From a virus, in the IMG/VR virus record IMGVR_UViG_3300037961_002813, positions 1-64,000 of that record: a stretch of 64,000 bases of DNA; one strand, given 5' to 3'. The notes below the pieces were generated by a model that had not been told where the DNA came from, searched no databases, and was given only the letters and a program-made list of their open reading frames with translations. Position numbers and translations under genes: made by a program. This document shows positions 14,201 to 57,761 of the stretch, piece by piece (within the stretch, counting starts at the first letter, position 1; the number at the start of each line of letters is the position of its first letter).

Positions 14201-17200
14201 CAACTTCGGATACTAAAGGTCTTGCTGTAGGTATGTATTTGTCACATGCTAATTTACCAATAAATACACAAATAGTATCTATTACTAACAGTACTACTTT
14301 TGTAATCAGCACAACTCCGACTTCTCTTTCTTCTCCTACTACTGTAACTGCTAGATTAATCGCATTTGGGGAAGATGATATATCTAATGCTACACCGTGT
14401 CTACACCCAACAGGTGATATATCTACTGATTCAAGAATAAGTCCGGCTACTAAATTATTAAACAATTCTAGTCTTTATCTTAATAGACAAGGCTTTCAAA
14501 GTGAGTTAAATACTCCATTTGGTCAAATGGTAGACCGAACAGAATTACAAGCAGACTACGGAACTATACATGATAATGCACATATTAGTAACACAAACGC
14601 ATTTAATGTAGGTAGAAAATCTGTATCAAGAAATTTTACAATTGAAAATATAGTATGGAAGCGTATGGATGGTGGTAACTTAAGTTTACCAAGTTTGAAT
14701 GCTAAAGGTCTAGGTGCAGTACCATTTATCACTCGTGTTAAAAATAACGCACCACTTACTATGGGAGAGAAAATATTTGGTAATAACAGATTTACTTTTG
14801 AAACTACAAACAGTTCTATGTTCCCAATTATTCAAGCACAAGAATTAATGCATCCGCAACTTGCAACTAAATTCCCAAGTGAAATTAAAAACGCTTTAAT
14901 TATACCAAATGAAGAAATACAATTCCAATCTATTTCAGTAGAAGATGATACAGGACAAGTACATACTATAGAGGGTGGTTCACCGTTTGGAACTATAATT
15001 AGAGGATTTAGAAAAGTATCGGATAGAGCATCGGAAGGTTTAGCACCGGCTGTAGAATCTAATGAAGAAAAGTATGTTGGTGTAGAGCCTAACTTAGAAA
15101 TTCAATTACCCGACCCTAATACTATACCGGGTAACATACTAGTTAGGTCGGGCTTTGATAGTATACAAGCCTATCAACATGAAACATTAGGTAGTGGAGG
15201 TATGATGAGACCTTCAAATAGAAATCATAATGGTGCAGGGCAAATATTTGATGAGGACTTTGATAAACTAAACGGGTTAAATCCGAGTGCAGTAACTATA
15301 GAATCACCACGATTAGGACCGACATACGAAGATTATGGTTGGGAACATATAAGTCAAGATTTAGATGGTGATATAAGATTCCCCGATAGTACTAAGAAAG
15401 GTTGGACTGAAACTACAGGTAATAATCCACTTAATACATCGTATAAATTACATGATAGAAGTTTATTTTTCCATATCACTAAGAAAGCAATAGGGTTTAC
15501 AGAAAAATTCCCTGTAGGATATTCTCATGCTAATGGTGTAGAAACACAAACTCCATCAGTAACTCAATACGCTTCCGGTGATTTTACACTTAGTGAAGCA
15601 TTGAATGTTAATGTATTTGCTTGGGGTAGTAAAGGAGATTTACATGATATAAATAGAAATGATGTAGATGGATGGGAAAATAATTATTTTAGAATTCGTG
15701 ATACTACTACAGGTAGAGAAGCACTTGTAAGTGGTGTTGTAACCGCCGCTAGAAGTTCTGCAAATGTTGTGAGAAATGTTGTATTAACAAAAGAAGCCGC
15801 TAGAATATTATTCAACAATGAGGACATTGAAAGTATTGATATTAATTCGGCTAATTTTACTTATAGTAACATACAAATTTTACCATCGTTCCCTGTTACT
15901 GCGGGTAACACTAGATTGTTTGCCGCAAGAAGAATGCGTGACCACTCCGAAGTAAGCGGTAACAGTCCCGATGCAAGGCATCAAATAATGAAACATAGTG
16001 AACAAGGACTTCAAGACACTATAGATAACATTCAAAGAAATAGGACAGTAGTATATCATAGATTTGAAGGTGGCGAGACACCTCTAGCGTATTATTTACA
16101 CAATATGAATTTGTCACCTATGGCGATACCAAGAATGGGCCATCACTTTGTGAATGCTACAATGGCAGTTATGCCGGGTCATTGGGCGCATCCTGCTTAT
16201 CAAAATCTGTACCATAAACATAGAGCATGTAGGTCGGCTACTTTAGGACTTAAAGAAAAATTACAGTATGAAATAGGTGTAGTAGATGCAGACACCCATG
16301 CTGTATACGACCCGTTGTTAGTATTCGGTGGTGTAACTGCTACACCAAGTGGACCGAGTGATATACATGGTGGTTCATTCTCACTTATGTTTGAAACCAA
16401 AATAAAACACGATGGTTACGGTATATTAGCAAGTGAGGGTGAAGCCGGTACGATTAATGCGGCAGGTGGTCACACTATAGTATTGAGAGCAGGAATGAGG
16501 CATACATTCAACAATCATTTCCCCGACCCAAGTAAAGTAGGTGCATATCAAATTATTATACAACCTAATGTATTTTCAAGTCAGTTTATTGGTTTCCACC
16601 AAAACGGTCCAAATAACGATTTACCAAATGGTAGTGTAGTTAGTCTAACAAGCCAACAAGTGGCATTAGTAGTTGGAATTAGAGAGTTAGATACCGATAC
16701 CGGTGGTATGGCATTAGTGCTTGCTAATGCTACTATGGCCGATGTTAGAGGTTGCGAAGTAATGATTAACGAAGTTATGTTAGACCACGACCCCGACCAC
16801 GGCGGGCAATTTACTAACATACCAAACTTGATGACTTACAATCCGTTTGGTGTTCAAAGTACAGAAGCACCGGCTTTTACTCGTCATTCATTACCATATC
16901 ACCCACAAATGTTTGTGCAATCTACACCGGGTATGACTACTAACATACCGTGGTGGTCTATAGTGCATCCACAAAAACCAACAATAACTACCGGTAGTAA
17001 TAGCGCAAAAGGATTTAGATTCTTAAGTCATCATAGATTAGATAATTATTATTTATTCATAAGAGCAAATGCAGGTAGTATAGGGGCGCAACTTACACTT
17101 GCGGGTTATCCGAGTACTTACCCTAATATGTATGACGAAGTGTTACGAAGTGTAAGTCTAAATCCTAATTGTAAATTTATTAGTGAAAGTAGTAATGTTC

Positions 17201-20200
17201 TAACCGTTGATGATGCAAGTGATTTCCCAATAGAACCTATGTACGGTGAGATGATTTACTACATAGATGCAAACGGTGTAAGAAGAACCTCTAATTGGTC
17301 TAGTCGTAGTGGTTTCGATGCCACTAATATGAATAAACCTAAACTTATCACTTTATCAAGCCCACCTGCGGGATTTGTAAGTAACCTTACAGCCGATACA
17401 ATTTTGCGTTTAACAAAACAAAATGACACAAGTAGAAATGCTAGTGAAATATTTACTGACTCCGAAAGAAGTATTATGACAAGAACATTACCCCAAACAC
17501 TACAAGGTAGTAGAGACACCAACAGTTTACATGTTCCCGATGCTTTTATTTGTACTTGGTCACCAAACTTAGAAAGACCAAATGCACCTTTCCTTGATTA
17601 TCGTAGGAATCCTACAAACCACATGTATAGTTCTTATGAAACTATACATTACCATGATAGCACATACTATGCAAGTTTAGGTCCATTTGCGTTAGATATA
17701 CAAACTCCAAAAATTATTACTTCAATAGCAACTAACAGATTAGTAGCATCTCATGCGACTAACACTATTACAACTAATAATACCGGTGTTAATCTTAGTG
17801 TTGGTGACAGAATATCAGTAGATGGTAGAATATATACAGTTCAATCGGATTCAAGTGGAGTTATAACTGTAAGAGAGGATACACCAAATGAAATTACTGT
17901 TGGTTCAGCCGTTATGATTGGTGGCATAGGAGATAGTATGCAGGGTGTTACAGGTAAAGACAATGCAGGTAATTCTTATCGTAACCAAGGTGGCTCAAGT
18001 TTTTACGGTCATTCAACTCTTGGTCAAGGTATGTCTATTCAATTAAATAATTATTGGCCTTGTGGAAGTAGAGGTGGACCGATAACAAGTAGATTAGATG
18101 GTTTTGGTTATGTATCTACAGGTTGGATGTTACCTACTGTTTATGCTGTAGATGATGCCGGGCCTATATGGCACGATGATGGTGATGACGGTTCTTATGA
18201 TGTAAACGCAGGTGTTGATGAGCGAGATTATGAAAACTCATTAATTAGTTGGGGAAGTTATACAAGTGGTGATATGCCAAATACAAGACCAAGACCGTTT
18301 GGTTACCGATTTGGTTTAAGGCAACCATATAATAAACCTCGATGGGCTTGGTATGGTATGAGAACATATTTAGAACAAGGTATTGGTCTCTCTTTCCTTA
18401 GTGTAGACTATAAACACGGTCCTTTGGTAGAGGCTAGGCATAGAACTAGCACTTGGATATATGCAGGTGGTGAAAGTTCACCATCGGGTGGTAATTCTAC
18501 TTTTGATACAACTTATGTAGGGATATTGGAGAGGCAAACAAACTTTGCCGGTATGGAAAATATGATACCAAACAATTTAACAAATACATACGGTAGAGTT
18601 ACAAGGTATTCCGATGGTATGCGAATGACAAGACCATTTGGTTGTCCTGTGAGAACCATAAGAAATGAATCCGATTTAAGTAATAATACAGAAACTAATT
18701 TAACACTTAAACCACACATAAGAAGAGAGTGGTTAGGTGATGATTATGGACATGGTTTAGTTGATGTTGCACACGCATCACAATACTATCTTGTAGATTG
18801 GTGGGGCAATACTCGTGGTGAAGATGTAAGAAGAATGCCTGTTCGTGGATTTGGTGTAAGCCCCGCTTGGTCACCAAAAGAAGGTATCAATGAGCATGGT
18901 TATAATGGGCCAAATAAATTTATTACAGGTGGTAGTGCTAATCCATATAATCCGTTTTATATGGGTCATTCTTTTTACAACTTTAAGAAAATTATATCTC
19001 CACATTTAGGTAACGGTCAAGGCTCGCCGGTTCTATATCAGTTAGTTTCCAATGCTCAAGGAACTGCTTGGTTTACATCTCCCTATGATACAATACCGTC
19101 ACAAGTAGGTAATTACAACGCAATAAATAGCGGAATACAAAATGAGATAGTAGATTTCTTTTTCCCGGCAACAGCAAGAAGAGTTGGTGACGAAGGCGGA
19201 GGTAGAGGTAATAGATACCCTACTGCTTTTAATCAACAATATTTTGGTGATTTAGATATACTTGATGAATTACCACACCGTGTAGGACAAGGTGTTGTAC
19301 CTAAAACGAAGGGTGCGGTACTATCTTACAATACAGCAGAACCTAACATTGGTGATGGTTACATAAGACCTAAGAACTCCTTACTAGGAACTGATGAAGT
19401 ACCTAGAGGTATAAGTGCTAGGTTACTAATAGATGACTACGGTTTGTTGAAGCCCGAAGCGACATTAGGTGCTAGGCAATTAGGAAGTTTAAGCGGTACA
19501 GGTTACTCTACTAATTTCATAACTACCCCTTATAGTGATGTAATTAGTAGAAGTAGTCCTAAGATTGGTTTAGATGTAGAAAACTTTGAAGGTATAGATA
19601 ATAACGCTATGATAGTAAATACAGAAGCGCATAGTCTACATACTAATCGTCAAGTAGGCCAAAGAGGTATATTACAACACGCCTATGTATCAGCAGATAT
19701 TAACCTCATTTCAGTAGGTTATTTGACGGGTGCAGTAAGCCATATTTACAATAACACATCTATGTTCAAAAATATTGGCGGTACAAATATATTAGACTTA
19801 AAGAATTATTCTGCCCCTGTTGATTTGGGTAGTTGGGGTAATCTCATACCAACTAATGGTTTAGTATTATGGCTTGATGCAGAAAGTTTACAATTAAATA
19901 ACGGTGATAATGTTGCAGAATGGAAAGACCAAAGTGGTAACAACAGACATGTTACACAATCTGTTACTGCTGACCAACCAACTTATGTTGCTTCCGATGC
20001 GGCATTTAACGGAAAATCTGTAGTTAATTTTGCTACTGATGATGTTTTAACAACTCCATTTGATGCTGAATTGAATACTAATGAATTTACTACTTTTGTT
20101 GTAATGTGTACAAATAATGATAATAGTAACTATCAAGCAGGTTTTGAAAGTAGAACTTTCAGTGGGGGTAGTAGAAGAGGTTACAATATATATGCTAATA

Positions 20201-37342: not shown

Positions 37343-38277
37343 TTCATTTCACCTATTTGTTTCTTTAGTCTTGCCACCAACACATCCACGAAAGCGTTAT
37401 CACTTCCCGGCCATTCATGTACTTTCTCCATCATGTCGCCCCAAACGGACATGATAGCGAATACAGTATCCGGGTCTTTGTCAAAGTACCCTCTAATGTA
37501 TTGGTGAAATTTATTCATAAAATATACACGGCTACCTGCGGTTTCCATGTTTTCATTAAGTTTCTCTCTAAGAGAATTATAATCATCATGTAACTTGAAG
37601 TCATCCCACCACGCCTCGGTGGTTTTGATAAAAGATAACTCTTGATTTTTTGGTCTACTTTCAAGGAAGTTCACAGCCGCCCTCAAGTCACCATTGAAAT
37701 GTTCTACTACATCTTCATAGGCTTGTTCCCATTCAACGGGTGCGCCACATGATTCTGTCGCTCTTAGCAAATGTCTAGCACCTTCTTTTGGAGTGACAGG
37801 AGTGAACTGATATATCTTACATCTGCTTTGTATGGCAGGTTTGATTTTTTCGGGATAGTTTGCTGTCAAGATAAACAAGACCCTGTGAGCATATTTCTCC
37901 ATGATACCCCTTAGTGCATCTTGGGATTGGGGAGTAAGCCCATCAGCCTCATCAAGTACTACTACCTTTCGTGCCGCATTGATACCACTAAGCCGACAGA
38001 ATTGTTTAATCTCCTGTCGGACATGCCCAATACCCCTATCGTCGCTTGCGTTAGTCCATAGAACATTCATATCATTATTCCATTGTCCTAACATTGTGTG
38101 TGTTATCGCATTTGCCGCACTAGACTTACCTGTACCCGGAGGACCGAGTATAAGTATGGCTGATGGGTACTCACCCGTTTTTTCCCATTCAAGGAAATCT
38201 TCGACAAAGACATTGTTACCTACTATCTCTACCGGTTTAGTAGGTCGTAGTAATTCGTTCCAATTCATCTTCATCAA
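37339..38277 (-). CDS. rfcS: replication factor C small subunit (clamp loader)
   Basis: W.E..RP, GPPGTGKS, NASDDRG, VVVLDEADGL, SQDALR, IQSRC, GDLRAAVN. Confidence 0.95.
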   Translation of the reverse strand: MMKMNWNELLRPTKPVEIVGNNVFVEDFLEWEKTGEYPSAILILGPPGTGKSSAANAITHTMLGQWNNDMNVLWTNASDDRGIGHVRQEIKQFCRLSGINAARKVVVLDEADGLTPQSQDALRGIMEKYAHRVLFILTANYPEKIKPAIQSRCKIYQFTPVTPKEGARHLLRATESCGAPVEWEQAYEDVVEHFNGDLRAAVNFLESRPKNQELSFIKTTEAWWDDFKLHDDYNSLREKLNENMETAGSRVYFMNKFHQYIRGYFDKDPDTVFAIMSVWGDMMEKVHEWPGSDNAFVDVLVARLKKQIGEMK

Positions 38278-38281
38278 CCTT

Positions 38282-38309
38282 CATTTCTTAGTTGGTTTAT
38301 ATATCATTT
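38282..38309 (-). promoter_or_regulatory. conserved TATA promoter motif copy 2
   Basis: Minus strand AAATGATATATAAACCAACTAAGAAATG immediately upstream of RFC. Confidence 0.8.
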
Positions 38310-41202: not shown

Positions 41203-41446
41203 TGTCCTCACCTTTGACCTCACACAGTCCGAACATGCCACAGCACACCCCTTTGTAAAGATACTGCCCGTTACTTAACAAATACATTTTATTTTTATTG
41301 TTATTTTTTCCACATGTCGGACAGTTGATTCCATAATCCCAAATGGATATTTCCATTACTACGGTATGGAACTCACCGTCTAACTTTATCTCATAGTTTC
41401 TCATATCGTCATCTACATCTGTGGTTACTATTTCCTCTTCCATCAT
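41180..41446 (-). CDS. small zinc-finger protein
   Basis: CPTC...CC; coupled to neighbours. Confidence 0.6.
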   Translation of the reverse strand: MMEEEIVTTDVDDDMRNYEIKLDGEFHTVVMEISIWDYGINCPTCGKNNNKNKMYLLSNGQYLYKGVCCGMFGLCEVKGEDNELATNN

Positions 41447-41568
41447 AATCTACCTCTCGCTATCAAATATCTATCAGCGATTATTCCATCTATCTCTATC
41501 TTGCATTCGTGGCACATGTCATCATACTCACCCTCGATGTCTAAGCAACCCGGACACTCATCAGTCAC
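41443..41568 (-). CDS. 41-aa zinc-finger microprotein
   Basis: GTG start in junction repeat; MTDECPGCLDIEGEYDDMCHECKIEIDGIIADRYLIARGRL*. Confidence 0.65.
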   Translation of the reverse strand: MTDECPGCLDIEGEYDDMCHECKIEIDGIIADRYLIARGRL

Positions 41569-41780
41569 GCCGTCACCTCCACCTTTTGACATCGTTCCCA
41601 TAGGTAGTCCATAGCCCAATCAATATCTTCTGCTGTGCAAATAATAGGTCTACCGAAAGTATCCATACCATTGTTATATGATTTGAACCAATCTCTTTCG
41701 TTTCCCTCAATACATGTGTATTGCATAATGCAAATGTTCAACGCTTGTATCTTTGCTTTTGATTTAGGAAATCGCTTCAC
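41565..41780 (-). CDS. hypothetical protein ending EVTA*
   Basis: GTG start overlapping upstream stop (GGAGGCGATACCGTGA); ends in junction repeat. Confidence 0.65.
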   Translation of the reverse strand: MKRFPKSKAKIQALNICIMQYTCIEGNERDWFKSYNNGMDTFGRPIICTAEDIDWAMDYLWERCQKVEVTA

Positions 41781-41935
41781 GGTATCGCCTCCCAATGGAG
41801 TAAAAACAATTCTTCACTCCAATTGTCTATGTCACCATTCTCTTTCTCTAGCATGTAGACTTTGCTACCGCTAACCATCTTATCGCCTTTCAAAGTTACA
41901 ATTACATTAGTATGTTTATTCTTATATTTCTTCAC
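41777..41935 (-). CDS. 52-aa microprotein
   Basis: MKKYKNKHTNVIVTLKGDKMVSGSKVYMLEKENGDIDNWSEELFLLHWEAIP*; starts in junction repeat. Confidence 0.65.
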   Translation of the reverse strand: MKKYKNKHTNVIVTLKGDKMVSGSKVYMLEKENGDIDNWSEELFLLHWEAIP

Positions 41936-42042
41936 GCCGTCACCTCCGCACAGTGAGGACAGGGTATTGTTTCATCAAGAGCATGTACACCATTACACAA
42001 ATTCATTTTACACATTAGCAAAGATAAATGAAATACCTTCAT
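41932..42042 (-). CDS. 36-aa Cys-rich microprotein ending EVTA*
   Basis: MKVFHLSLLMCKMNLCNGVHALDETIPCPHCAEVTA*; bounded by two junction repeats. Confidence 0.65.
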   Translation of the reverse strand: MKVFHLSLLMCKMNLCNGVHALDETIPCPHCAEVTA

Positions 42043-42200
42043 GCCGTCACCTCTTCATATTCTATCGCTTCTTCAATATTTTCTAAATGCTCTTGAATTA
42101 TATCGTATCTAAGTTGTAAATCATCAAGTGCTTTCTTCATTTCCTTCAATGATAGTTCATAGGCACTTTTCATTCCCTTTAATGCTATTAACTTACTCAC
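42039..42200 (-). CDS. 53-aa coiled-coil microprotein ending EVTA*
   Basis: MSKLIALKGMKSAYELSLKEMKKALDDLQLRYDIIQEHLENIEEAIEYEEVTA*. Confidence 0.65.
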   Translation of the reverse strand: MSKLIALKGMKSAYELSLKEMKKALDDLQLRYDIIQEHLENIEEAIEYEEVTA

Positions 42201-42352
42201 GCCGTCACCTCCACGCCATATTCATTTAGGTAATGACACTCACTACAAATACGCCCTGCTTGAACATCATGTAGTGGCTCATCTTTGATACAACAGGTCT
42301 TGGAACATACCTCGCAATCTTCGTAGCCGTCTGTCACTTTGTATTCACTCAT
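42197..42352 (-). CDS. 51-aa zinc-finger microprotein ending EVTA*
   Basis: MSEYKVTDGYEDCEVCSKTCCIKDEPLHDVQAGRICSECHYLNEYGVEVTA*. Confidence 0.65.
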   Translation of the reverse strand: MSEYKVTDGYEDCEVCSKTCCIKDEPLHDVQAGRICSECHYLNEYGVEVTA

Positions 42353-42894
42353 GCCGTCACCTCCCACCAACTAGGAACATCAGTACGCACATACCGCACC
42401 CCACCTTTACTGTATTGCTTAGACTTGTAGTAAGACCTGTAGGCTTGTACTGCAAATTTAGGATAAGCATGGTATACAATCTCACCGTCAATTGGTTCGG
42501 GTCTGTATTCATCGGGCATAGCCAATGCAAACTGTGTCAATCCACCTTCGGGAATGATGTAGTCTATACAAGACATAATGTGGATAGGTGCGCTACAAGC
42601 ATGCACTTTATCAAAACGATTTGAGTATTCAGTTAGTAGTGCTTGAGCATGGCGAGCCAACCACTGAAAGTTAGCACGACTGTCACCCGCCCATACTGTG
42701 CAAGGGTGATGTTTGTATCCTCCCTTGTATGGTTTACCTGCTTTGGTAAGTGGCATCTGCTCATCAGTAGCACCATGCCTACGCAAACTAGCGGCCATCA
42801 TCTGTGCTGACTCTACGCACATCTTAGGTAATCTAACATCATCCATGTACTTAGCCGCAGTAACAGGGTTTTCATCTAATACAAATATGTTCAT
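42349..42894 (-). CDS. pyrimidine-dimer DNA glycosylase/endonuclease V-like protein
   Basis: MNIFVLDENP...D..LPKM..ESAQM...HHPCTVW...EY..RF.KVH...FALAMPDEY...AVQAYR.YY family pattern. Confidence 0.75.
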   Translation of the reverse strand: MNIFVLDENPVTAAKYMDDVRLPKMCVESAQMMAASLRRHGATDEQMPLTKAGKPYKGGYKHHPCTVWAGDSRANFQWLARHAQALLTEYSNRFDKVHACSAPIHIMSCIDYIIPEGGLTQFALAMPDEYRPEPIDGEIVYHAYPKFAVQAYRSYYKSKQYSKGGVRYVRTDVPSWWEVTA

Positions 42895-43327: not shown

Positions 43328-43489
43328 CTATTCCTCCTGTATGTCTACCTCTTCTGCCTCGAACAAGTAGTCCTCGTATGGTGCGCCAAATAATGTATGC
43401 ACTACCCACAACTTCTCTTCTAGTTCTTCTTCATTTTCTGCCTCTATCTCACCTGTATAGGTGACTCTTACTGTATATGTTTTTTTCAT
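43328..43489 (-). CDS. 53-aa acidic microprotein (not in ORF track)
   Basis: MKKTYTVRVTYTGEIEAENEEELEEKLW...EAEEVDIQEE*; directly downstream of promoter copy 3. Confidence 0.6.
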   Translation of the reverse strand: MKKTYTVRVTYTGEIEAENEEELEEKLWVVHTLFGAPYEDYLFEAEEVDIQEE

Positions 43490-43502
43490 GTTTCTCAATC
43501 CT

Positions 43503-43530
43503 CATTTCTTATTTGGTTTATATATTATTT
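43503..43530 (-). promoter_or_regulatory. conserved TATA promoter motif copy 3
   Basis: Minus strand AAATAATATATAAACCAAATAAGAAATG. Confidence 0.8.
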
Positions 43531-43849
43531 ATTCCGGTCTGTATTTTTTACCGTAGTCATACATCTCTTGCCATACCCCTACCAATGCAAAGTGGTAATG
43601 GTAATCATTTACACTCGCTTTGAAGTTGTCATAGTTTATACCCATCAACAGGTCACCGATGACAGTGCCTACAACATAGTTGTCTATGTCTGCCCTGTAT
43701 GGGTAGTCTGCATCTGCATCTTCATACACTTCTGCATTTGGAAAAATACTTTCAATGTGATTTTTATTTCTCGCTCGCACCAATAATGTATGTTCCTTAT
43801 CCCTGTGCTTTACGATACTCAACCATCCCTTATTGGTCGCTATCCACAT
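43529..43849 (-). CDS. conserved phage hypothetical protein
   Basis: MWIATNKGWLSIV...LLVRAR...DYPYRA...INYDNFK pattern. Confidence 0.65.
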   Translation of the reverse strand: MWIATNKGWLSIVKHRDKEHTLLVRARNKNHIESIFPNAEVYEDADADYPYRADIDNYVVGTVIGDLLMGINYDNFKASVNDYHYHFALVGVWQEMYDYGKKYRPE

Positions 43850-45426: not shown

Positions 45427-45451
45427 TTTTTATCTCTCCTTTTCATCTCTC

Positions 45452-45486
45452 TTTTCTTTCTTGGTTTATATATCATTTCTTTCAGT
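45452..45486 (-). promoter_or_regulatory. conserved TATA promoter motif copy 4
   Basis: Minus strand ACTGAAAGAAATGATATATAAACCAAGAAAGAAAA. Confidence 0.75.
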
Positions 45487-45954
45487 CTTGTTTTTATTTT
45501 TGTTTTCGTGAATCATATTGTGTATTAATTCCCTCGCAATATTGTCGTACAACTCTTTGTTCTTCGGTAGTATGTCTTTCCACGGTATAGCCATAGATGG
45601 TCTTAGTTCAGCCATCTTCGCTCTTACTTCTTTGTCGTTAAGGTTGGCAAGTAAGCGTAGTACAACATACGCTACTCCGCCTGTCCTATCCCTACCGTGT
45701 ACACAGTGCAAGAGTACATCCTTACCTGTGTCGAGTAAGTCAATCACCAAGTCTACGGCATGCGCCCATATCTCCGGTGTACTATTTTTAGCCCTAAAGT
45801 AATAGTGGTGTCGCTCATGCTTGTCCGAGTCTATGTATCTAGGTGGGTAGCGACACAGTGTAACTATCGTGTGGTTCGGTTGTAGTGTATCACGGAAGTC
45901 ATTAAGGCCACACATAGTAAGTGAGCCATTACTTACTTTGATTGATTGGTTCAT
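45466..45954 (-). CDS. CX5R protein-tyrosine/dual-specificity phosphatase
   Basis: VLLHCVHGRDRTG active-site loop. Confidence 0.85.
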   Translation of the reverse strand: MNQSIKVSNGSLTMCGLNDFRDTLQPNHTIVTLCRYPPRYIDSDKHERHHYYFRAKNSTPEIWAHAVDLVIDLLDTGKDVLLHCVHGRDRTGGVAYVVLRLLANLNDKEVRAKMAELRPSMAIPWKDILPKNKELYDNIARELIHNMIHENKNKNKTERNDI

Positions 45955-46022
45955 TTGTCTCTCTCCTTAATTATTTGTTCACAAATCCAAATCCACATCA
46001 ATTCATTTAATGTCATTCTCAT
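45951..46022 (-). CDS. 23-aa micro-ORF
   Basis: MRMTLNELMWIWICEQIIKERDK*; ATGA-coupled at both ends. Confidence 0.4.
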   Translation of the reverse strand: MRMTLNELMWIWICEQIIKERDK

Positions 46023-46330
46023 TCTTCCTCGCCTCCATACATCATTTCGTAGCATTCCTTTGAACAGATGTGAATATCGTCATCATCTATCTCTTCTCTA
46101 AAGTGACCCTCACCTTGCATTTCTGTTCCGCACCAATCGCATTCATACACTTCATAGTGACCTTTTTCGGCTAAATCGTGGTATTCATCTATATCCCAAG
46201 AATAGTCAGTGGTTCTATGTTCTTCGCAGATTTTACAGTAAGCCTCAACAAACACATGGACTATACCATCACTGTCACTTGGTCTGTATGGCACGCTAAA
46301 TGTCCACTCATGATTACATTCTTTCTTCAT
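46019..46330 (-). CDS. zinc-finger protein ending GGEEE*
   Basis: CNHEW, CKIC, CDWC, CSKEC. Confidence 0.65.
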   Translation of the reverse strand: MKKECNHEWTFSVPYRPSDSDGIVHVFVEAYCKICEEHRTTDYSWDIDEYHDLAEKGHYEVYECDWCGTEMQGEGHFREEIDDDDIHICSKECYEMMYGGEEE

Positions 46331-46674
46331 TCAATCACCTTCCCATTTGTAATACTTCTGTGTAAGTCCTCAATGTAATCACTCATGTAATACCCATCAG
46401 CCGCCTCCATATTGTTAGCAATATCAGTAATCGCTTCACGCAACCGTTTGATTTCAGCAAGAAGTTTTGGTGCGTCTTGTATCAGTAAAGCATCTGCTTC
46501 AATTTTCTTCCTTGTTCTTTGTCCTACTTCTTCGGTAAACAATTTACATATTCCACCTACTGCTACCGAGCCATCCTCAAAGAAATGAGCCTTCCAATGT
46601 GTGCTATGTCCTTCGTAGTCATCTATGACGATACCACGAGGGCGAAAGAGAGAAAAGAGGGGAATCCAACTCAT
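46327..46674 (-). CDS. Ea22/Ead-like family member (DAPKLLAEIKRLRE), outlier of the 49.5-51.3 kb array
   Basis: YEGHSTHW...ADALLIQDAPKLLAEIKRLRE; degenerate repeat B at 46436-46456. Confidence 0.65.
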   Translation of the reverse strand: MSWIPLFSLFRPRGIVIDDYEGHSTHWKAHFFEDGSVAVGGICKLFTEEVGQRTRKKIEADALLIQDAPKLLAEIKRLREAITDIANNMEAADGYYMSDYIEDLHRSITNGKVIE

Positions 46675-46814
46675 TCTTCCTCGCCTCCTTCACATTCTTT
46701 ACACAAGCCTTGCTTGTTCATATCTACTAACGGATAGGCGTGGGAACACCCTAAGCAATAACCCATGAGTATTCCTTTCTTTACTCCCTCAATGTAATCA
46801 TCGCTGTGTATCAT
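46671..46814 (-). CDS. 47-aa zinc-finger microprotein ending GGEEE*
   Basis: MIHSDDYIEGVKKGILMGYCLGCSHAYPLVDMNKQGLCKECEGGEEE*; bounded by two identical junctions. Confidence 0.65.
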   Translation of the reverse strand: MIHSDDYIEGVKKGILMGYCLGCSHAYPLVDMNKQGLCKECEGGEEE

Positions 46815-47104
46815 TCTTCCTCGCCTCCTTCACGATACTCCGCCCATTCATCGAACAGCGTTTCATTATCTATTTTGAATACCCTCTTTGTTGAAAGCCC
46901 ACACACTTTACACAAGTATCTCAATTCCATTTCATTGTCTGCAACGGTAGGTGTAGCCAACGCTTGATGGTGAACCAATGTCCACTCATGCTCTACACAT
47001 GGTTTATCTGCGTAGCCGGACTCTTCCCAAAAGTTTAGTTTGTCCAACCTGTTCTGCAAGTCTATCATATCTTGTTTTATTTTATCTCTTAATTTATTTT
47101 TCAT
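46811..47104 (-). CDS. zinc-finger protein ending GGEEE*
   Basis: CVEHEW...CKVCG. Confidence 0.6.
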   Translation of the reverse strand: MKNKLRDKIKQDMIDLQNRLDKLNFWEESGYADKPCVEHEWTLVHHQALATPTVADNEMELRYLCKVCGLSTKRVFKIDNETLFDEWAEYREGGEEE

Positions 47105-47723: not shown

Positions 47724-49183
47724 CCAGTCACTTCCTTTGTACGGTTTAGTTTATCCTCCCTATAACCAAACGGCATTGTTGTAAATTTATCTTTGTGCAT
47801 TTCAAACCACATGTCACCTTTAGTTTGTAAGTTCACTAAACATTGTTGTGGAGTAGACATTGATTCAACTTCAACATTAGGGTGTAGATTTAATTCAGTG
47901 GTCACATTGTTAGTCTTGTACCTAATGGTAGGAGTAACAAACTGTAATTCTCCATTCTTGATTTTTCTATCTACACATACTTGAAGATTGTTTGGTCGCA
48001 TGGCATTATTTACTGCGGAACAATAATCAATAGCATCCTGTTCATTTAAGAATCTAACATTGTACCCAATAATGTCATAGGTATGTAACTTTTCTATCGG
48101 TTTCCAAACATAAGACACGATTTCCATACCGAATGATTTTTGCACATGACCCTTTGAATACACCCAACCGTTTACTTCATCACCTAACTTACGCTTCTTA
48201 GAATTAGATGCCATGATTTTTGTTCTTTTATCTTGAACTTTTCGCCACACACTGTCATACCACTTGAACTTACGACCTCTACCTTCTGTTGTTTGACACA
48301 CTACACCACGCTTCTTCATACGATTGACAGCCTTGTTGATTTGTTTAATTACCGTCTTGTCGTCAGCGTGTTTAGTGTAAGTGCGAGTAAACATTTTGTT
48401 GTATTCAATTGAGCCATCTAACACTAGCCTTTTTTGTAAGTAATCACTTGTCCACCCTACAGGTATGTTGGATGGTGATAAGATTTGTAAATCCGGCATC
48501 ATGACCCAAGCATTTCTTTTGGCTTCCCCGCCATGAATCGTACACATACTTTCCTTGTCTCTTGTACACAAACCATACCATGAAATTTCTCCATATTTTG
48601 ATTTAATCTTTGAAGTTCCTTTAGATGTAGTAAAGTAATAACTCGGCCAATTATATTCAACTGAATTACGACAGAAAGTTTCAAACTCTTTCTTTCTACT
48701 TTTTTGTGATTCACTTGAGATACTACTGTATCCCCCTTCAACTTCCCATCCGCATATTACATCTAAGTAATCACGATAGTCAATTTCATGTCTGTCTAAT
48801 ACACCTATTATGGAATTAATATACCCTACTCTTCTTTGTCTACCGTATTCATTGGACTCACGCTTTATGTGAACACCATCACACACAACTTTCTTTCTGT
48901 CTAATACACCTCTTACAATTCTCCCCGACTCAAACAATGAGGCGAGTCTTGTATGGTCATTGACTAAATCTTTAGCCGTGACCTCTACATTCTCGCCCAT
49001 ACTAACGATACTGTACAGTACCGCTATGTCCATTGGGTTAGCCTTGCCTACCGTATGTTTCACATACCCTAACGCTTGACTTGTCAGTACTTCTTCGTCA
49101 GTGTATGAAAGGGTATCACCCATCAGTCCTAATTCGTGCCATGTGTTCGCATCTCTATGTTTACTATATTGCATATTTCTCAT
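47720..49183 (-). CDS. hypothetical protein (487 aa, basic)
   Basis: Long ORF immediately downstream of promoter copy 5. Confidence 0.75.
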   Translation of the reverse strand: MRNMQYSKHRDANTWHELGLMGDTLSYTDEEVLTSQALGYVKHTVGKANPMDIAVLYSIVSMGENVEVTAKDLVNDHTRLASLFESGRIVRGVLDRKKVVCDGVHIKRESNEYGRQRRVGYINSIIGVLDRHEIDYRDYLDVICGWEVEGGYSSISSESQKSRKKEFETFCRNSVEYNWPSYYFTTSKGTSKIKSKYGEISWYGLCTRDKESMCTIHGGEAKRNAWVMMPDLQILSPSNIPVGWTSDYLQKRLVLDGSIEYNKMFTRTYTKHADDKTVIKQINKAVNRMKKRGVVCQTTEGRGRKFKWYDSVWRKVQDKRTKIMASNSKKRKLGDEVNGWVYSKGHVQKSFGMEIVSYVWKPIEKLHTYDIIGYNVRFLNEQDAIDYCSAVNNAMRPNNLQVCVDRKIKNGELQFVTPTIRYKTNNVTTELNLHPNVEVESMSTPQQCLVNLQTKGDMWFEMHKDKFTTMPFGYREDKLNRTKEVTG

Positions 49184-49187
49184 CTCT

Positions 49188-49223
49188 CATTTCTTATTTG
49201 GTTTATATATCATTTCTTTCAGT
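49188..49223 (-). promoter_or_regulatory. conserved TATA promoter motif copy 5
   Basis: Minus strand ACTGAAAGAAATGATATATAAACCAAATAAGAAATG. Confidence 0.8.
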
Positions 49224-49230
49224 GTCAATT

Positions 49231-49467
49231 TTATTCTAATGGATGGTCTATGTACTTGTCACCTAGTGTCCATCTAAGGGCTTTGACTACGCCCTCAAGT
49301 GCCTTGTAATTTCTCATGTGATAGATACGCTCTTTCTTCTTACCTATCTGCATCCTTGTGAAGTGCATGTTCTGTTTGCGCTCGGCTCTATCGAGCATAG
49401 CAAGGATAACTTTCTCATCCCTAACGCCCATGAATGATTCGCTGTCTTGGTGGTCGCTCATTGTCAT
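49231..49467 (-). CDS. hypothetical protein
   Basis: 78 aa, coupled to the last array gene. Confidence 0.65.
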   Translation of the reverse strand: MTMSDHQDSESFMGVRDEKVILAMLDRAERKQNMHFTRMQIGKKKERIYHMRNYKALEGVVKALRWTLGDKYIDHPLE

Positions 49468-51294: not shown

Positions 51295-51517
51295 TCTCCA
51301 TCACCTTCTTCGATTTGCTTCGCCATGCCTCTAATCCATCATTCGATATAGGAAATACATTCATGTATTGCTCAACCCTCTCTATTGCTCGCTCAAGTGA
51401 AGAGTAACTATAGTTACCCATTAAGTCCACTACTTCTCTTAGGTCAGTGTCACCTAACCCATGTCTGTCCAACCATCGAAGGACATATACTGCTAATTGT
51501 TTTGTATCAGTTATCAT
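51287..51517 (-). CDS. hypothetical protein, first gene of the array operon
   Basis: Directly downstream of promoter copy 6. Confidence 0.6.
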   Translation of the reverse strand: MITDTKQLAVYVLRWLDRHGLGDTDLREVVDLMGNYSYSSLERAIERVEQYMNVFPISNDGLEAWRSKSKKVMENE

Positions 51518-51524
51518 CAACCAA

Positions 51525-51560
51525 TATTTCTTAGTTGGTTTATATATTATTTCTTTCAGT
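51525..51560 (-). promoter_or_regulatory. conserved TATA promoter motif copy 6
   Basis: Minus strand ACTGAAAGAAATAATATATAAACCAACTAAGAAATA. Confidence 0.8.
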
Positions 51561-51567
51561 GTTAATT

Positions 51568-52245
51568 TTAAGCAACTCTTCTCGCTATGTCGCCCACTCT
51601 TTGCTGTAATATACTCGCTGTGTTAGGGTTTTGAACTGCTTGGTCAATGGCACTACGCATAGCATCCTCGCCCCCGTATGTATCGTATGACCTACCTATG
51701 TCTTGTTCAGTTATGTGACCTAACTCATTAGGATTTTTCAGTCTTAAAGTATCGAGTTCACCTACGGTAGAACCAAACGCTGAACCTTTAGGTGCGCCCT
51801 GCGCTCTAAAAGCACCTGCCCCTCCAACATCAACATAGGATATACTACCATCGGGTAACACTATGGCATTGTCATTATCCAAACCTAGCATATCCCAATT
51901 AGCAATCATCGCATGCGGAACAATATCTCTCGCAGTATGCGCTCTATCTCTTATTGGTTGAATGTGGCGACCCTGCTGATACTCGGTTATCATGTGGTCA
52001 TCATCAAAGTGCGCTTGCGGAACGCCTACGCCTAATAGATTCAGTAAGCGATTCATCTCATACTCATTGCGAATATGAGCAGGACTACTACCACGCTTAG
52101 ATACGAAACGGCCTTGCGGTACATCGAATAGCCTTGCGCCTGTGCTACCGCCTAAGAACTGACCTCGTTCTCCCGCCTGTTGCCTCGCCCGAATCTCTTG
52201 CATGGCGAGTTCCATAGGCGACATGGATTCACCTATGAGTGTCAC
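51568..52245 (-). CDS. HipA/PI3-4-kinase-like protein
   Basis: GGSTGA glycine loop, FVSK, NEYE..RL..LLGVGVP, IANWD...DNDN, YVDVGG, FRAQG: atypical kinase motif order. Confidence 0.6.
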   Translation of the reverse strand: MTLIGESMSPMELAMQEIRARQQAGERGQFLGGSTGARLFDVPQGRFVSKRGSSPAHIRNEYEMNRLLNLLGVGVPQAHFDDDHMITEYQQGRHIQPIRDRAHTARDIVPHAMIANWDMLGLDNDNAIVLPDGSISYVDVGGAGAFRAQGAPKGSAFGSTVGELDTLRLKNPNELGHITEQDIGRSYDTYGGEDAMRSAIDQAVQNPNTASILQQRVGDIARRVA

Positions 52246-54172: not shown

Positions 54173-56733
54173 GCTTTCACTTCCTTTTTCTTTTGGATGA
54201 AACTTTTGGGTAGGTCTCCATCCTCAACCATTTGTTGTAAGAGCATAGTGGCTATACCCTTACGGTCATCCAAGTCACCACCATCAAGGATGGACTTGAT
54301 AACCTCACGCTTTGCTTCGACCACTGCGTTAAACTTCTCATCTATTGTTCCGGCTACAGTAAGGAACACTGCGTGTACACTGTTACTATCTTGACCGATA
54401 CGATTGACTCTATCTTCTGCTTGTTCCTCCCATGCCGGAGTCCACTCTCTCTCAACAAAGAGAACAGTGTCAGCCGCAGTAAGTGTGATACCTTCCTTAG
54501 CCGCAACAGTAGAACATAGAAGGACATCTAACTTACCTGCTTGGAACGCTTCGACTCTTATCTGTCTATCACTTGCTGATACTTGTCCGTTGATAACACC
54601 GCATCGCCACTGCTCTTTGCTGTTACCAAGTGCATCCCATATTCCTTTGAGTACATCTTGGTGGTGAGCAAAGACCACCACAGGCTTGCCTGTTATCTCT
54701 CGGTATTCAGTCAGCCATTCGACAGCCGACTCGACTTTGATTTTACCACACTCATGCCGCAAGTCTGTTAGCATGTTCAAGACGAAACCCTTTGGTGTAC
54801 TACCACTCATCAAGTGATACTCATACTCTTGTATCCATGACTGATGTAGAGCGTTGTAGTTAGTAAGTTGTTTCTTACTTGGCTTGACTGTGTGCATGGT
54901 GCGTATCTTGTCGGGTAGTTCATCGAGTACTTCCTTCTTGAGTCTACGGATACAGAAGTCTCTTGTGCGCTCATGTAACTCATCAGTGTTACTCGCACCG
55001 GAGTAGTCCCATCCCCAACCGTTGTCGAAAGCATCGCAGTATCTTTGTCCGTAGTTATAGAAACTATTGAACTCCGCAGGTCTAAGCAGGTTGAGTGTAG
55101 TAAAGAACTCCGATGGTCTGTTAGTGATAGCAGTACCACTCAAGCACAGGATTGATTCAGCATTAGAAGCAACCTCAAGCGTGGCTTGGGTACGCTTTGC
55201 TTTACTGTTCTTGACATAGTGTGACTCATCACAGATAACTATGTTGAACTCTTTGTCAAGTAACCCATCCATTCGCTTTGCCATTATCTCATAGTTACAG
55301 ATGACCACATCAGTATCCGGTATCACACCCTTACCACCTTCAAGTACACTCACTGTTAGATTAGGTAGCCACGCCATGAACTCCTTGCGCCAGTTATACT
55401 TTACATTAGAAGGACATACTACAAGAGCAGGTAACTTGTCTTGGTTAAGAGCAGTGTAAGCGATGGCTTGGATAGTCTTACCCACACCCATGTCATCACC
55501 TATCAAGGCACGACCTCCTGCTAACTGTGCAAACCTCACACCGACATATTGGAACGGGAACAACTCACGCCCTTCGGGGAAGTGGTTGGCTAACTCTTCA
55601 CGCATCTGTGTTACCATCTCTTCATCATCAAGTGCTGATGCACCACTGATGGAGATACGCTTGGCTCTCTCTTCCATCGCTGTGTGTATCTGTGGTATAG
55701 TCTCAAGAGCATCAACAAGTAACTTCGCTTCACTTAGGTTTTGTTTCTTTAGTCTGTCTATCAAAGCAGGTGCTTGATAGATACTGACTGACCATGACTT
55801 GTTATCGGGATTATACTTACGACCTTCTGTTGCTTTGACTTGTGCCATCACTCTCATACGCACATCCGGGTCAGCGATGTAAGGCCACTTCATTTCGATG
55901 GTAGTACCTTTGAGTGTGGCTGTGTAGTTAGTAACTTTCTTCACCACTTGTTTAGGTGTGAAAGTATGTTCACCTCTTAGTTGTGCAAGTGACTCATCAA
56001 AGAAACCTCCGGCTTCCTCAAGCACACGCACAGCAGTATCAAGAGTATCCTTGTCATCATTGAGTGTCCACTTCTTTCTTGAACCATCGAACTTAACTCT
56101 TGGAAACTGTAAGGCTTGCTTGAGTGCTTGGTTGAACTCATTGTTGTACGCATAGGTAAGAGCGATACGCTTGGTCTTGAACTCCTTGCCCCACTTGTTT
56201 TTCCACACATCATCTACAAGTTTAACACTGATAGTAAGTGAGAAAGGTGGAGTCCAACTGTTTACATAGTCCTCGATGAAAGCCTCCGCCTCATCTTTCT
56301 CAAGTCCGTGTGAGTACATGACAGCATTGACAACGAACTCATCAAAGACATTCTCCCTACCTCTAAGTTTAGTGTTAAGTAAACTCATGGTGCTTGCCTC
56401 TTTCTTTCTTTGTATAGACTGTAACTCTTGGAGTATCTCATACTTACGCTTGGCTTCTTCACCAACCATCTTCATCTCAAGTAAGAAAGAACTTACATCC
56501 GTATGACCATCGAGTAGTCCTGTGTCTGCAAGTATGCTTGGTAACTGTGTGTTCCTATATTTGTAGAGGCGTTCAGCCGCCTCAAGTAACTCATGCTTCT
56601 CCATCGTATCCTTGTGTGCTATCCTGTCGAAGAAAGGGAAGTCTGCTTTGTTAGCACCTATCCCATCATCCATTACAGGCGCACCATAACCAACGAAGGT
56701 TCGTATCATTCTGTGTACTATATCTGTGTTCAC
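54169..56733 (-). CDS. SNF2-family helicase, HARP/SMARCAL1-like
   Basis: GDDMGVGKTIQAI, VICDESHYVKN, LSGTAITNRP, RRLKKEVLDELP, VFAHH, EGITLT, QAEDRVNRIGQ; two N-terminal HARP-like segments (FDGSRKKW, YNPDNKSW). Confidence 0.9.
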   Translation of the reverse strand: MNTDIVHRMIRTFVGYGAPVMDDGIGANKADFPFFDRIAHKDTMEKHELLEAAERLYKYRNTQLPSILADTGLLDGHTDVSSFLLEMKMVGEEAKRKYEILQELQSIQRKKEASTMSLLNTKLRGRENVFDEFVVNAVMYSHGLEKDEAEAFIEDYVNSWTPPFSLTISVKLVDDVWKNKWGKEFKTKRIALTYAYNNEFNQALKQALQFPRVKFDGSRKKWTLNDDKDTLDTAVRVLEEAGGFFDESLAQLRGEHTFTPKQVVKKVTNYTATLKGTTIEMKWPYIADPDVRMRVMAQVKATEGRKYNPDNKSWSVSIYQAPALIDRLKKQNLSEAKLLVDALETIPQIHTAMEERAKRISISGASALDDEEMVTQMREELANHFPEGRELFPFQYVGVRFAQLAGGRALIGDDMGVGKTIQAIAYTALNQDKLPALVVCPSNVKYNWRKEFMAWLPNLTVSVLEGGKGVIPDTDVVICNYEIMAKRMDGLLDKEFNIVICDESHYVKNSKAKRTQATLEVASNAESILCLSGTAITNRPSEFFTTLNLLRPAEFNSFYNYGQRYCDAFDNGWGWDYSGASNTDELHERTRDFCIRRLKKEVLDELPDKIRTMHTVKPSKKQLTNYNALHQSWIQEYEYHLMSGSTPKGFVLNMLTDLRHECGKIKVESAVEWLTEYREITGKPVVVFAHHQDVLKGIWDALGNSKEQWRCGVINGQVSASDRQIRVEAFQAGKLDVLLCSTVAAKEGITLTAADTVLFVEREWTPAWEEQAEDRVNRIGQDSNSVHAVFLTVAGTIDEKFNAVVEAKREVIKSILDGGDLDDRKGIATMLLQQMVEDGDLPKSFIQKKKEVKA

Positions 56734-57761
56734 TCTTTCACCCCCACTGTCTTGTCACAGTTTCTACACTCAAGGTCACCGAACTGTGGGTTGATGCGAG
56801 TGATGTCTGTAACTTTGAAGAACTGTTTGCATGCACCACATTCAAACTTACCACCGTGTGACTCAACACCTGTCAAGTCAGCGAAGCATTGTATACACTC
56901 CGGCTCACCATCAGCGAACTCAACAAGAGGTAGGTATTCATGACACGCAGGACAGTGCTTTGTACCATCCACTACATCTTCATGGAAGGCATCTATCAAG
57001 TCATCGTAGTCCATGTCTAGGTCAGTAGTAGTAACTCCTTTTCCCTTATCAGCAACCTTGTAGTTTGGTGGGTCGTACAAAGTAGACCAACCACTGTAAC
57101 TACCACCCCATGATGGTTCGTGAACTTTGTTTTCACCAAGTGGTATCTCACACACATCAGCGATGTATTGCTGTTGGCTCTTGGCTTCTACCGCATGAGT
57201 ACAGTGTTGCTCACGCACCCACTCTACTAACTCACCTGCATCTTTCCATGTGTGTTGCTCGGTTGGTATTAGGTAGTGAGCAAGTATGGCTAACTGAACT
57301 CCGGTACGACCATGCCCGCCCGCACACTGTGTGGATATAACTTTGATGTCGAACTCCTTGATGTCATCAAGTAGTGCATACCAAAAGTACTTGCTGACTT
57401 TAGGTATGGAGAAGTCCGGCCAGTCTAAAGATACAAAGTGTGGCGGAGTACTGTTAGTAAGATGTTGCTCACATGACCAACCCTCCGGTACTTCAGTCTT
57501 GGAACTAAGTAAGTTCATACCTAGAGTCTCGCTTGGTGCTATCGCTAACTGTGGTAGTGGACTCATCAAGTGCCAACCACCGTTGCGGTTACGCCCGCCC
57601 GCCCATACTTCAACACCATCATCGGTCTTGAAGATAAGGTTGTGTCCTGTGTGGCAAGTCTGCTTGCTTACCCATGTGCCTGTATTTTTCTTTGCTTGTT
57701 TCATTTTCTTCATCTCCTTTTTCTTTGCTTGCTTTCGTTGTCTTGCTTTTCTCTTTCCCAT
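56730..57761 (-). CDS. CX5R protein-tyrosine phosphatase with C-terminal zinc fingers
   Basis: WPDF loop, QCAGGHGRTG active site, AVEAKSQQQY Q-loop; CPAC, CIQC, CGAC, CRNC. Confidence 0.85.
   Translation of the reverse strand: MGKRKARQRKQAKKKEMKKMKQAKKNTGTWVSKQTCHTGHNLIFKTDDGVEVWAGGRNRNGGWHLMSPLPQLAIAPSETLGMNLLSSKTEVPEGWSCEQHLTNSTPPHFVSLDWPDFSIPKVSKYFWYALLDDIKEFDIKVISTQCAGGHGRTGVQLAILAHYLIPTEQHTWKDAGELVEWVREQHCTHAVEAKSQQQYIADVCEIPLGENKVHEPSWGGSYSGWSTLYDPPNYKVADKGKGVTTTDLDMDYDDLIDAFHEDVVDGTKHCPACHEYLPLVEFADGEPECIQCFADLTGVESHGGKFECGACKQFFKVTDITRINPQFGDLECRNCDKTVGVKE

Follow-up and report, generated by a model that had tools for sequence, protein, structure and literature searches.

What joins a row of very small, unrelated genes in a virus genome, and why should the join be made of the same letters each time? 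The question is raised by positions 41443 to 42894 of a 64,000-nucleotide stretch of viral DNA (positions 1 to 64,000 of IMG/VR virus record IMGVR_UViG_3300037961_002813; hereafter the window), where short genes on the minus strand follow one another across a recurring 16-mer. We call this 16-mer the linker and the genes that it bounds cassettes. In our assessment the linker is probably a translational-coupling connector and a short-homology recombination site at once, at work in accessory-gene arrays of magrovirus-type viruses. The feature is real, well delimited and apparently undescribed, and it is apparently an unusually clean case of recombination mediated by a boundary sequence.

Five copies of the linker, GGAGGTGACGGCRTGA, stand on the minus strand (41565, 41932, 42039, 42197 and 42349), and the rest of the window has none. 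These are the five copies listed by an earlier, sequence-only reading of the locus, and the search pattern RGAGGTGACGGCRTGA recovers all of them, against 0.00 matches expected from dinucleotide shuffles; the 10-nt core, from the spacer through the stop, has no further occurrence across the 64 kb. As that reading also held, every copy is at once a ribosome-binding site, the final four codons and TGA stop of the upstream open reading frame (ORF), read as EVTA*, and the start of the next ORF. The RTG start overlaps the upstream TGA (RTGA), and GGAGGTGA, the Shine-Dalgarno (SD) sequence, ends 4 nt before the start.

The chain begins with a DenV-like gene of 181 amino acids (aa; 42349-42894, minus strand, as are all features of the array), followed by ORFs of 51, 53, 36, 52, 71 and 41 aa. 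Such arrays usually have the DenV-like gene at their head, and this gene, with the linker tail at its end, is a cassette too; linker copy 1 (42349-42364, ATG form) combines its stop with the start of the 51-aa ORF. The latter (family F07, 42197-42352) has two CxxC pairs, is 99% identical at a different array position in the related locus L007, and has a ratio of non-synonymous to synonymous substitution rates (dN/dS) of 0.1 against locus L005. Copy 2 (42197-42212, GTG form) leads to a 53-aa helical, charged protein (F01, 42039-42200) that is 96-99% identical in L007 and L037 beside other neighbours, copy 3 (42039-42054, ATG form, first base A) to a 36-aa protein (F11, 41932-42042) with a dN/dS of 0.11 against its relative in L069, and copy 4 (41932-41947, GTG form) to the 52-aa ORF (41777-41935), which is conserved in L004 and L007. 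The 52-aa ORF ends in a diverged sixth junction (41777-41792) that was missed when the five exact copies were first listed. It consists of an SD, 7 nt and GTGA, gives the tail EAIP*, differs from the linker at 4 of 16 positions and lies between the 52-aa and 71-aa ORFs; an independent (Atlas) gene call starts the 71-aa ORF at its GTG. The 71-aa ORF (41565-41780) is missing from L004 and L007 and ends in copy 5 (41565-41580, GTG form), the last of the array and the exact point at which the conserved downstream flank of L007 begins. The 41-aa ORF (41443-41568), with a CPGC...CHEC arrangement, starts in copy 5, leaves by a different 3' junction and is the first gene of that downstream flank. Of the functions first proposed for these genes, the pyrimidine-dimer glycosylase stood, with matches of the 181-aa protein to PF03013 (Pyr_excise, E 2.4e-9) and phrog_624 (1e-49), but the zinc-finger and coiled-coil labels rest on CxxC pairs and weak matches, such as that of the 41-aa ORF to DZR_2. 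A Protein Atlas search with the 71/76-aa ORF gave no usable match.

Could such an array have been made by an assembler? In Logan run X3 a single 1715-nt contig spans 40900-42482, run X5, from a different study, holds overlapping contigs with 0-1 differences, and together the contigs of the two runs span every array junction with 0-4 differences. The arrangement is accordingly real and not an artefact of one sample. Assembly chimeras were likewise rejected as an explanation on the grounds that the repeat is shorter than assembler k-mers and that identical arrays occur in independent metagenomes (L016/L017/L198, L009/L011 and L052/L054). Tandem duplication followed by divergence was also considered as the origin of the array and rejected, the cassette bodies being unrelated, 29-248 aa long and inclusive of enzymes of different folds.

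Relatives show how general the arrangement is. An IMG/VR search with the DenV-like protein found 80 loci at 94-42% identity, to which an exact 16-mer scan added multi-copy loci, and in the resulting set of about 85 related loci a census tolerating two mismatches within the first 12 bases counted 187 linker copies on the coding strand (120 of them exact) and 0 on the other. The number per locus ranges from 0 to 11, and the run usually begins at the stop of the DenV-like gene. In five near-complete relatives (74-109 kb) the linker is restricted to one array that lies within a few kb. Of 128 inter-linker intervals, 108 consist of exactly one ORF, 29-248 aa long, and the cassette ORFs of about 60 arrays cluster into 67 unrelated families that are co-oriented, promoterless and variable in content and order. 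At least two CxxC-type pairs are present in 27 of the families, and the dN/dS of family pairs with measurable divergence is mostly 0.02-0.3, so these micro-ORFs are real genes under purifying selection.

Why should the joining sequence be conserved so exactly? A perfect 8-nt SD and the RTGA overlap explain 12 of the 16 bases but not the 4-nt spacer, and a further ~7 nt upstream of the 16-mer, with no SD role, are 50-70% conserved. One answer would be that selection acts on the protein, with the C-terminal peptide (V)EVTA serving, for example, as a degradation or sorting tag of the micro-proteins. All 67 families do end in EVTA, preceded by V at two thirds of junctions (by G-V at about half). 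The synonymous sites, however, are fixed as well: the threonine codon of the linker is ACG in 120 of 139 cases (86%) against 14% in cassette bodies, an excess which places conservation at the level of the nucleotides and not of the peptide. Variants are moreover non-synonymous (K, M, V, E) as often as synonymous, and in the one frame that stops at RTGA the SD and spacer can only be read as EVTA, which together leave a peptide tag highly improbable.

Nor does translation at the junction readily account for the spacer. Throughout the related loci the exact 12-mer stands at 103 of 1723 RTGA junctions, and the next commonest 12-mer at 15. Among the 266 junctions of the form GGAGG-N7-RTGA, 103 have this spacer; the spacers that follow in frequency, with 11, 8 and fewer copies, lie one or two steps away from it, and beyond these there is wide diversity. 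The window itself has many other sequences built on the same SD-N4-RTGA template. The motif is thus not a common coupling sequence scattered evenly over the genome, the outcome that the sequence-only reading had named as damaging to its case, as it forms one array in each of the five relatives and other GGAGG-N7-RTGA junctions use many spacers. SD accessibility is the same at the linker and at other junctions (0.54 vs 0.52), providing no structural rationale for the spacer, and the consensus linker folds weakly (-2.4 to -4.8 kcal/mol, a stem of 3-4 bp), with no inverted-repeat or hairpin architecture.

If neither peptide nor translation explains the linker in full, the movement of the genes may. 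It had been proposed that cassettes are gained and lost at the junction, and an alignment of relatives had been set beforehand as the check. Gene content proved not to be fixed: between flanks that are 86-97% identical the array counts 5 genes in the window, 4 in another order in L007 and 1 in L004. The 51-aa (F07) and 53-aa (F01) cassettes of the window are 98-99% identical in L007 with their order swapped, and in general cassettes 90-100% identical to each other sit between unrelated neighbours with flanks at the random level. The F04 copies of L006 and L016, for example, match at 100% while their flanks are no more alike than random sequence, and the same holds for F01, F06, F09, F13, F14 and F19. 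The DenV-like gene behaves no differently, since its 90% identity to that of L001, where linker variants stand at both sides, runs from the ATG to the end of the linker only and both flanks are unrelated. In 17 locus pairs the shared cassette is at least 90% identical beside DenV-like genes that are just 59-78% identical, which argues for recent exchange.

The breakpoints of these rearrangements fall in the 16-mer or its extension. We compared 19+19 cassette edges, from cassettes at least 85% identical, and at 37 of the 38 homology stops in the 16-mer or at most about 14 nt outside it in either direction; the single exceptional edge has the same neighbour on that side. On the 3' side homology ends 12-27 nt from the 5' edge of the linker, and on the 5' side 15-30 nt from its 3' end, mostly in the ~7-nt extension. 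Synteny breakpoints in the same loci, counted over comparisons that are not independent of one another, fall, at a strict threshold, on 38 of 115 junctions made by the linker and on 18 of 781 RTGA junctions of other sequence; at a calibrated threshold the counts are 112 of 115 and 339 of 781.

We infer from these patterns both the recombination mechanism and the translational coupling itself. The 16-mer, often with its ~7 partly conserved upstream bases, would close each cassette at its 3' end as a standard connector. In the mRNA its perfect 8-nt SD, 4-nt spacer and RTGA stop/start overlap would form a coupling unit, and promoterless micro-genes would be translated by termination-reinitiation from one upstream promoter, at the cost of a four-residue EVTA scar on each protein. 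In the DNA it would be the place at which co-circulating viruses trade cassettes and at which these come in, drop out or change order, most likely through template switching or recombination over short homology; the permutations would follow if a cassette were cut out between two direct copies and then entered again at any other one. Since stop and start both lie in the connector, neither gene is broken or silenced by a crossover there. Common descent and repeated exchange, and not translational need, may then have kept the 4-nt spacer and the conserved bases upstream of the 16-mer, and the linker would promote the joints, rather than the joints merely ending there.

The expression half of this scheme has well-known parallels. 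In archaea and bacteria alike, genes that overlap at ATGA/GTGA and have an SD upstream are known to be coupled by termination-reinitiation (Huber et al., 2019, PMC6728339), and the 4-nt stop/start overlap and the SD inside the upstream gene make this the likely expression role of the linker, judged by its layout. Ordinary coupled pairs, however, have individual junction sequences, whereas here one sequence is reused verbatim for unrelated genes.

Several points weigh against a recombinational role. No recombination event was seen directly: Logan contig joints at linker copies have sides of just 20-24 nt, show only the same linker beside other sequence in other contigs and were not counted as evidence of recombination, and nor was an X3 contig in which a relative of the 71-aa gene lies directly before the DenV-like start, with a side of 32 nt. 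Classical homologous recombination would have little to work with in 16-23 bp. Illegitimate recombination followed by selection would also place breakpoints at gene boundaries, and selection on the accessory genes of the array, instead of more frequent recombination, could be behind its high turnover. Whether the start codon has A or G goes with neither flank (22/41 and 23/44 vs 50% by chance), so that the crossover point within the linker cannot be mapped from this base, and the other variable linker positions are likewise linked to neither flank. Finally, the exact 16-mer often forms a lone stop/start junction in phages and bacteria of high GC: among 86 cases in IMG/VR contigs with a GC content of 55% or more (loci within L081-L199), 81 are genuine single-copy junctions, and it also occurs as one in Streptomyces, Paraburkholderia and Saccharopolyspora genomes (genome loci L200-L278), which indicates that the sequence can be reached by convergence.

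These single-copy 16-mers look like independent arrivals at a perfect SD followed by a GC-rich spacer, or like orthologous junctions that were conserved, and even the 20-mer that includes the upstream extension recurs as a single-copy junction in high-GC phages. In three IMG/VR contigs of 56-67% GC (L113, L126 and L130), high-GC phages with almost nothing in common with the window, 2-5 EVTA-type junctions lie close together, meaning that small local groups of this junction type exist outside the magrovirus-like group as well.

Taken together, such points could mean that the linker is kept solely as the best coupling sequence, gained independently time after time, and that shuffling is illegitimate recombination filtered for intact genes, with the linker breakpoints a by-product. 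The SD and RTGA overlap that account for 12 of the bases, the recurrence in high-GC contigs and bacterial genomes and the wide use of the SD-N4-RTGA template in the window all fit this explanation. We nevertheless think it unlikely, because the array viruses have a GC content of 39-44% and their loci have a further 163 GGAGG-N7-RTGA junctions with different spacers, because ACG appears in the linker at six times its usual frequency beside upstream bases that are conserved without an SD role, because the linker SD is no more accessible than others, and because breakpoints are far commoner at the linker than at other RTGA junctions. What is distinctive here is the verbatim reuse of the 16-mer in local arrays of low-GC viruses.

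A repeat at gene junctions could also be a binding site. The stoperators of cluster A mycobacteriophages are asymmetric 13-16 bp repressor sites in 24-34 copies genome-wide (PMC3029335), and the linker is like them in lying at gene junctions, over stop and start codons as stoperators often do, and in one orientation relative to transcription. By analogy the 16-mer might be the site of a regulator, either on DNA in the stoperator manner or as an RNA operator or nuclease target in the manner of T4 RegA/RegB, that co-regulates the micro-genes, with recombination as a side effect. The strict one-way orientation (187 vs 0), the position at stop/start junctions, as for stoperators (PMC3029335), and conservation at the nucleotide level are what a regulator site would display. 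Copies of the linker, however, do not spread genome-wide but are packed in one array of about 1 kb in the five records, where they coincide with gene-content breakpoints; no co-varying regulator gene was seen, and the motif is unchanged across viruses whose DenV-like genes are ~55-60% identical, with no co-variation of site and regulator of the stoperator type. Such a site also leaves unexplained the other tails that gene families carry outside arrays, and on balance we give it a slim chance.

These other tails are found on close homologues of array genes (F06 in L016 and F21 in L035), and distant DenV-like homologues are without the linker tail, from which we conclude that the tail is exchangeable. 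The F06 copy (L016:283-560) is 92% identical, lies ~5.7 kb from the main array, has a 5' linker decayed by a 1-nt insertion and an unrelated 3' end, and resembles the remnant of an older array or a cassette in transit.

Are these arrays, then, a kind of integron? Integron cassettes are promoterless, mostly single-ORF and co-oriented, carry a recombination element at the 3' end, are expressed from one upstream promoter and depend on IntI, attI and attC sites of 57-141 bp. The viral cassettes are likewise promoterless, co-oriented and mostly single-ORF, with a 3' element and variable content and order. The difference lies in the machinery, as there is no IntI, attI or structured attC but an SD/stop/start of 16-23 nt, and recombination is probably homology-based and not site-specific. 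Tyrosine and serine recombinases (PF00589, PF00239) were absent from five relatives, three of them at least 90% complete, in searches with positive controls, and Pfam scans of the window ORFs of at least 150 aa found no tyrosine or serine recombinase. The DenV-like protein was examined as a candidate integrase of the array and rejected, given that arrays occur without it: L099, L172 and L126 have no adjacent DenV-like gene. With no recombinase, no attC-like structure and arrays away from the DenV-like gene, the array does not qualify as an integron, nor is it tied to any single adjacent enzyme. The description first given to it, integron-like but without a visible integrase, therefore survives in its second half, and in its first half as an analogy only.

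A Pfam search for Rad51 in the five relatives was also negative; the RadA-like ATPases of magroviruses are said to need profile-profile searches (PMC5434244), and this reported divergence makes the Rad51 result uninformative.

An enzyme of another kind has also to be weighed, namely a virus-encoded one that recognises the linker and catalyses cassette excision and integration, for instance a site-specific recombinase that has escaped recognition or a nuclease of the nicking or homing type; this would make the array a true functional analogue of an integron. The breakpoints are sharp, the permutations fit excision and re-insertion, the viruses carry ERCC4-HhH and PD-(D/E)XK nucleases and the DenV-like glycosylase at the head of most arrays, and many of their ORFs belong to no known family. 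But the searched relatives and window ORFs lack the recombinases named above, some arrays lack an adjacent DenV-like gene, the linker has no inverted repeats or hairpin, and its variable positions do not segregate as a fixed cleavage point predicts, so that a dedicated enzyme seems very unlikely. Ranked by decreasing likelihood, the alternatives to our favoured reading are the coupling optimum, the operator site, the dedicated enzyme and the peptide tag.

A bolder version of the scheme, to which we assign a low probability, is an integrase-free gene-capture system, in which a viral or host factor would recognise the SD/stop/start linker, excise cassettes as circles and reinsert them at any linker copy. 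If true, one sequence would be both an RNA translation signal and a DNA recombination site, and a new class of cassette platform would stand alongside integrons.

The closest known relative of a coupling connector that doubles as a short-homology recombination site, the reading that we prefer, may be the PeSL of T4-type phages. This is an intergenic element of ~50 bp, an early promoter with a terminator stem-loop, found between small non-essential ORFs (Arbiol et al., 2010, PMC2839356), and a gene can leave as a circle when neighbouring copies recombine (PMC2839356). In both cases a short repeated expression signal lies in a hyperplastic region, with the joints of insertions, deletions and replacements in the repeat. 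The linker differs in being 16-23 nt long and inside coding sequence, in acting through SD, stop and start on translation and not transcription, in leaving a peptide scar and in having no stable stem-loop; the host here is also probably archaeal.

More generally, the modular theory of phage evolution, as presented in PMC3029335 with reference to earlier work (its refs 21-22), has homologous recombination at short sequences shared by otherwise unrelated modules produce mosaics, and shared boundary sequences are reported not to be identifiable at most phage mosaic boundaries (PMC3029335). The linker is of this kind, a single sequence bounding 67 unrelated families in ~60 arrays (187 copies) with the joints mapped to it. 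Phage genomics has long been short of clear examples of the linkers that the theory invokes, and this one shows how a virus can make gene shuffling safe, as a crossover in stop/SD/start yields two intact, expressed genes. In that respect the linker is a natural counterpart of the standard connectors of synthetic biology.

Which viruses carry these arrays? A DNA search of the cultured phages in INPHARED with the locus returned zero matches. The nearest cultured relatives of the window PolB are haloarchaeal tailed viruses, and the same arm encodes a Cpn60/TCP1 chaperonin, an ERCC4-HhH nuclease, a PD-(D/E)XK nuclease and an RFC-like AAA ATPase. The last four proteins are typical of an archaeal-type replication module. 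The stretch is present in marine metagenomes, relatives of it measure 74-109 kb, and the DenV-like protein supplies a DNA glycosylase. A magrovirus is expected to combine an archaeal-type module of PolB, RFC, ligase, ERCC4 nuclease, DNA glycosylase and chaperonin with a marine genome of about 100 kb. Magroviruses are presumed viruses of Marine Group II archaea (PMC5434244; PMC10160649), and PolB, ligase, ERCC4 nuclease and DNA glycosylase are present in nearly all of them (PMC10160649). The window is thus a probable magrovirus-type archaeal virus, an assignment matched to published descriptions (PMC5434244, PMC10160649) and not to a reference sequence; those descriptions of magroviruses do not mention cassettes, mosaicism or recombination.

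Within this group the linker flags an accessory-gene array with two families of DNA methyltransferase, a C5 and an N6/N4 type, and with numerous Zn-ribbon micro-proteins that purifying selection maintains. The two methyltransferase cassettes suggest that cassette functions may include counter-defence or host takeover, which would make the array micro-proteins candidates for these roles in viruses of Marine Group II archaea, an abundant virus group with neither virus nor host in culture.

Two bacterial metagenome-assembled genomes (MAGs) hold the only multi-copy linker matches in cellular genomes, on contigs with a DenV-like gene and an array: a 'Maricaulis' MAG (L264, contig NZMJ01000078.1) with 5 linker copies after the gene, and an 'Opitutales' MAG (L254) with 2. 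The cassettes of both are common to the IMG/VR viruses, and the two are probably virus contigs mis-binned into bacterial MAGs.

The array is not confined to the position after the DenV-like gene. In L172 (1134-1724) four cassettes lie upstream of a homologue of the SNF2-type helicase that the window encodes at about 54.8-56.2 kb, and arrays therefore occupy more than one genomic site.

Other repeats of the window are of a different nature. A ~64-nt repeat (family D4, 4 copies) lies on the minus, coding strand at 43484-43547, 45432-45495, 49169-49232 and 51506-51569, with a further copy at about 38264-38309. Its layout is a TATA-like box, then an SD, then a start codon (ATG at 43484-43547), resembling an archaeal-type promoter reused at the head of successive operons, and copies stand at several positions in L004 and L007. 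The copy at 43484-43547 (minus strand), the nearest upstream of the array, is likely the promoter of the operon that includes the promoterless array. The repeat could also be a second, PeSL-like recombination substrate.

A second junction family, with a purine-rich SD/stop/start and the tail GEEE*, is found at 46019-46041, 46671-46693 and 46811-46833. Under a relaxed pattern the relatives have 96 such junctions on the coding strand and 0 on the other, degenerate, scattered and not packed into one array. Between 49464 and 51296 small paralogous genes stand in a row with two alternating conserved segments (repeat families D1 and D3). Elsewhere, two ORFs of the early arm (45466-45954 and 56730-57761, minus strand) have Pfam matches of the protein-tyrosine-phosphatase type, and the structural arm has one ORF of 6311 aa on the plus strand (2293-21228).

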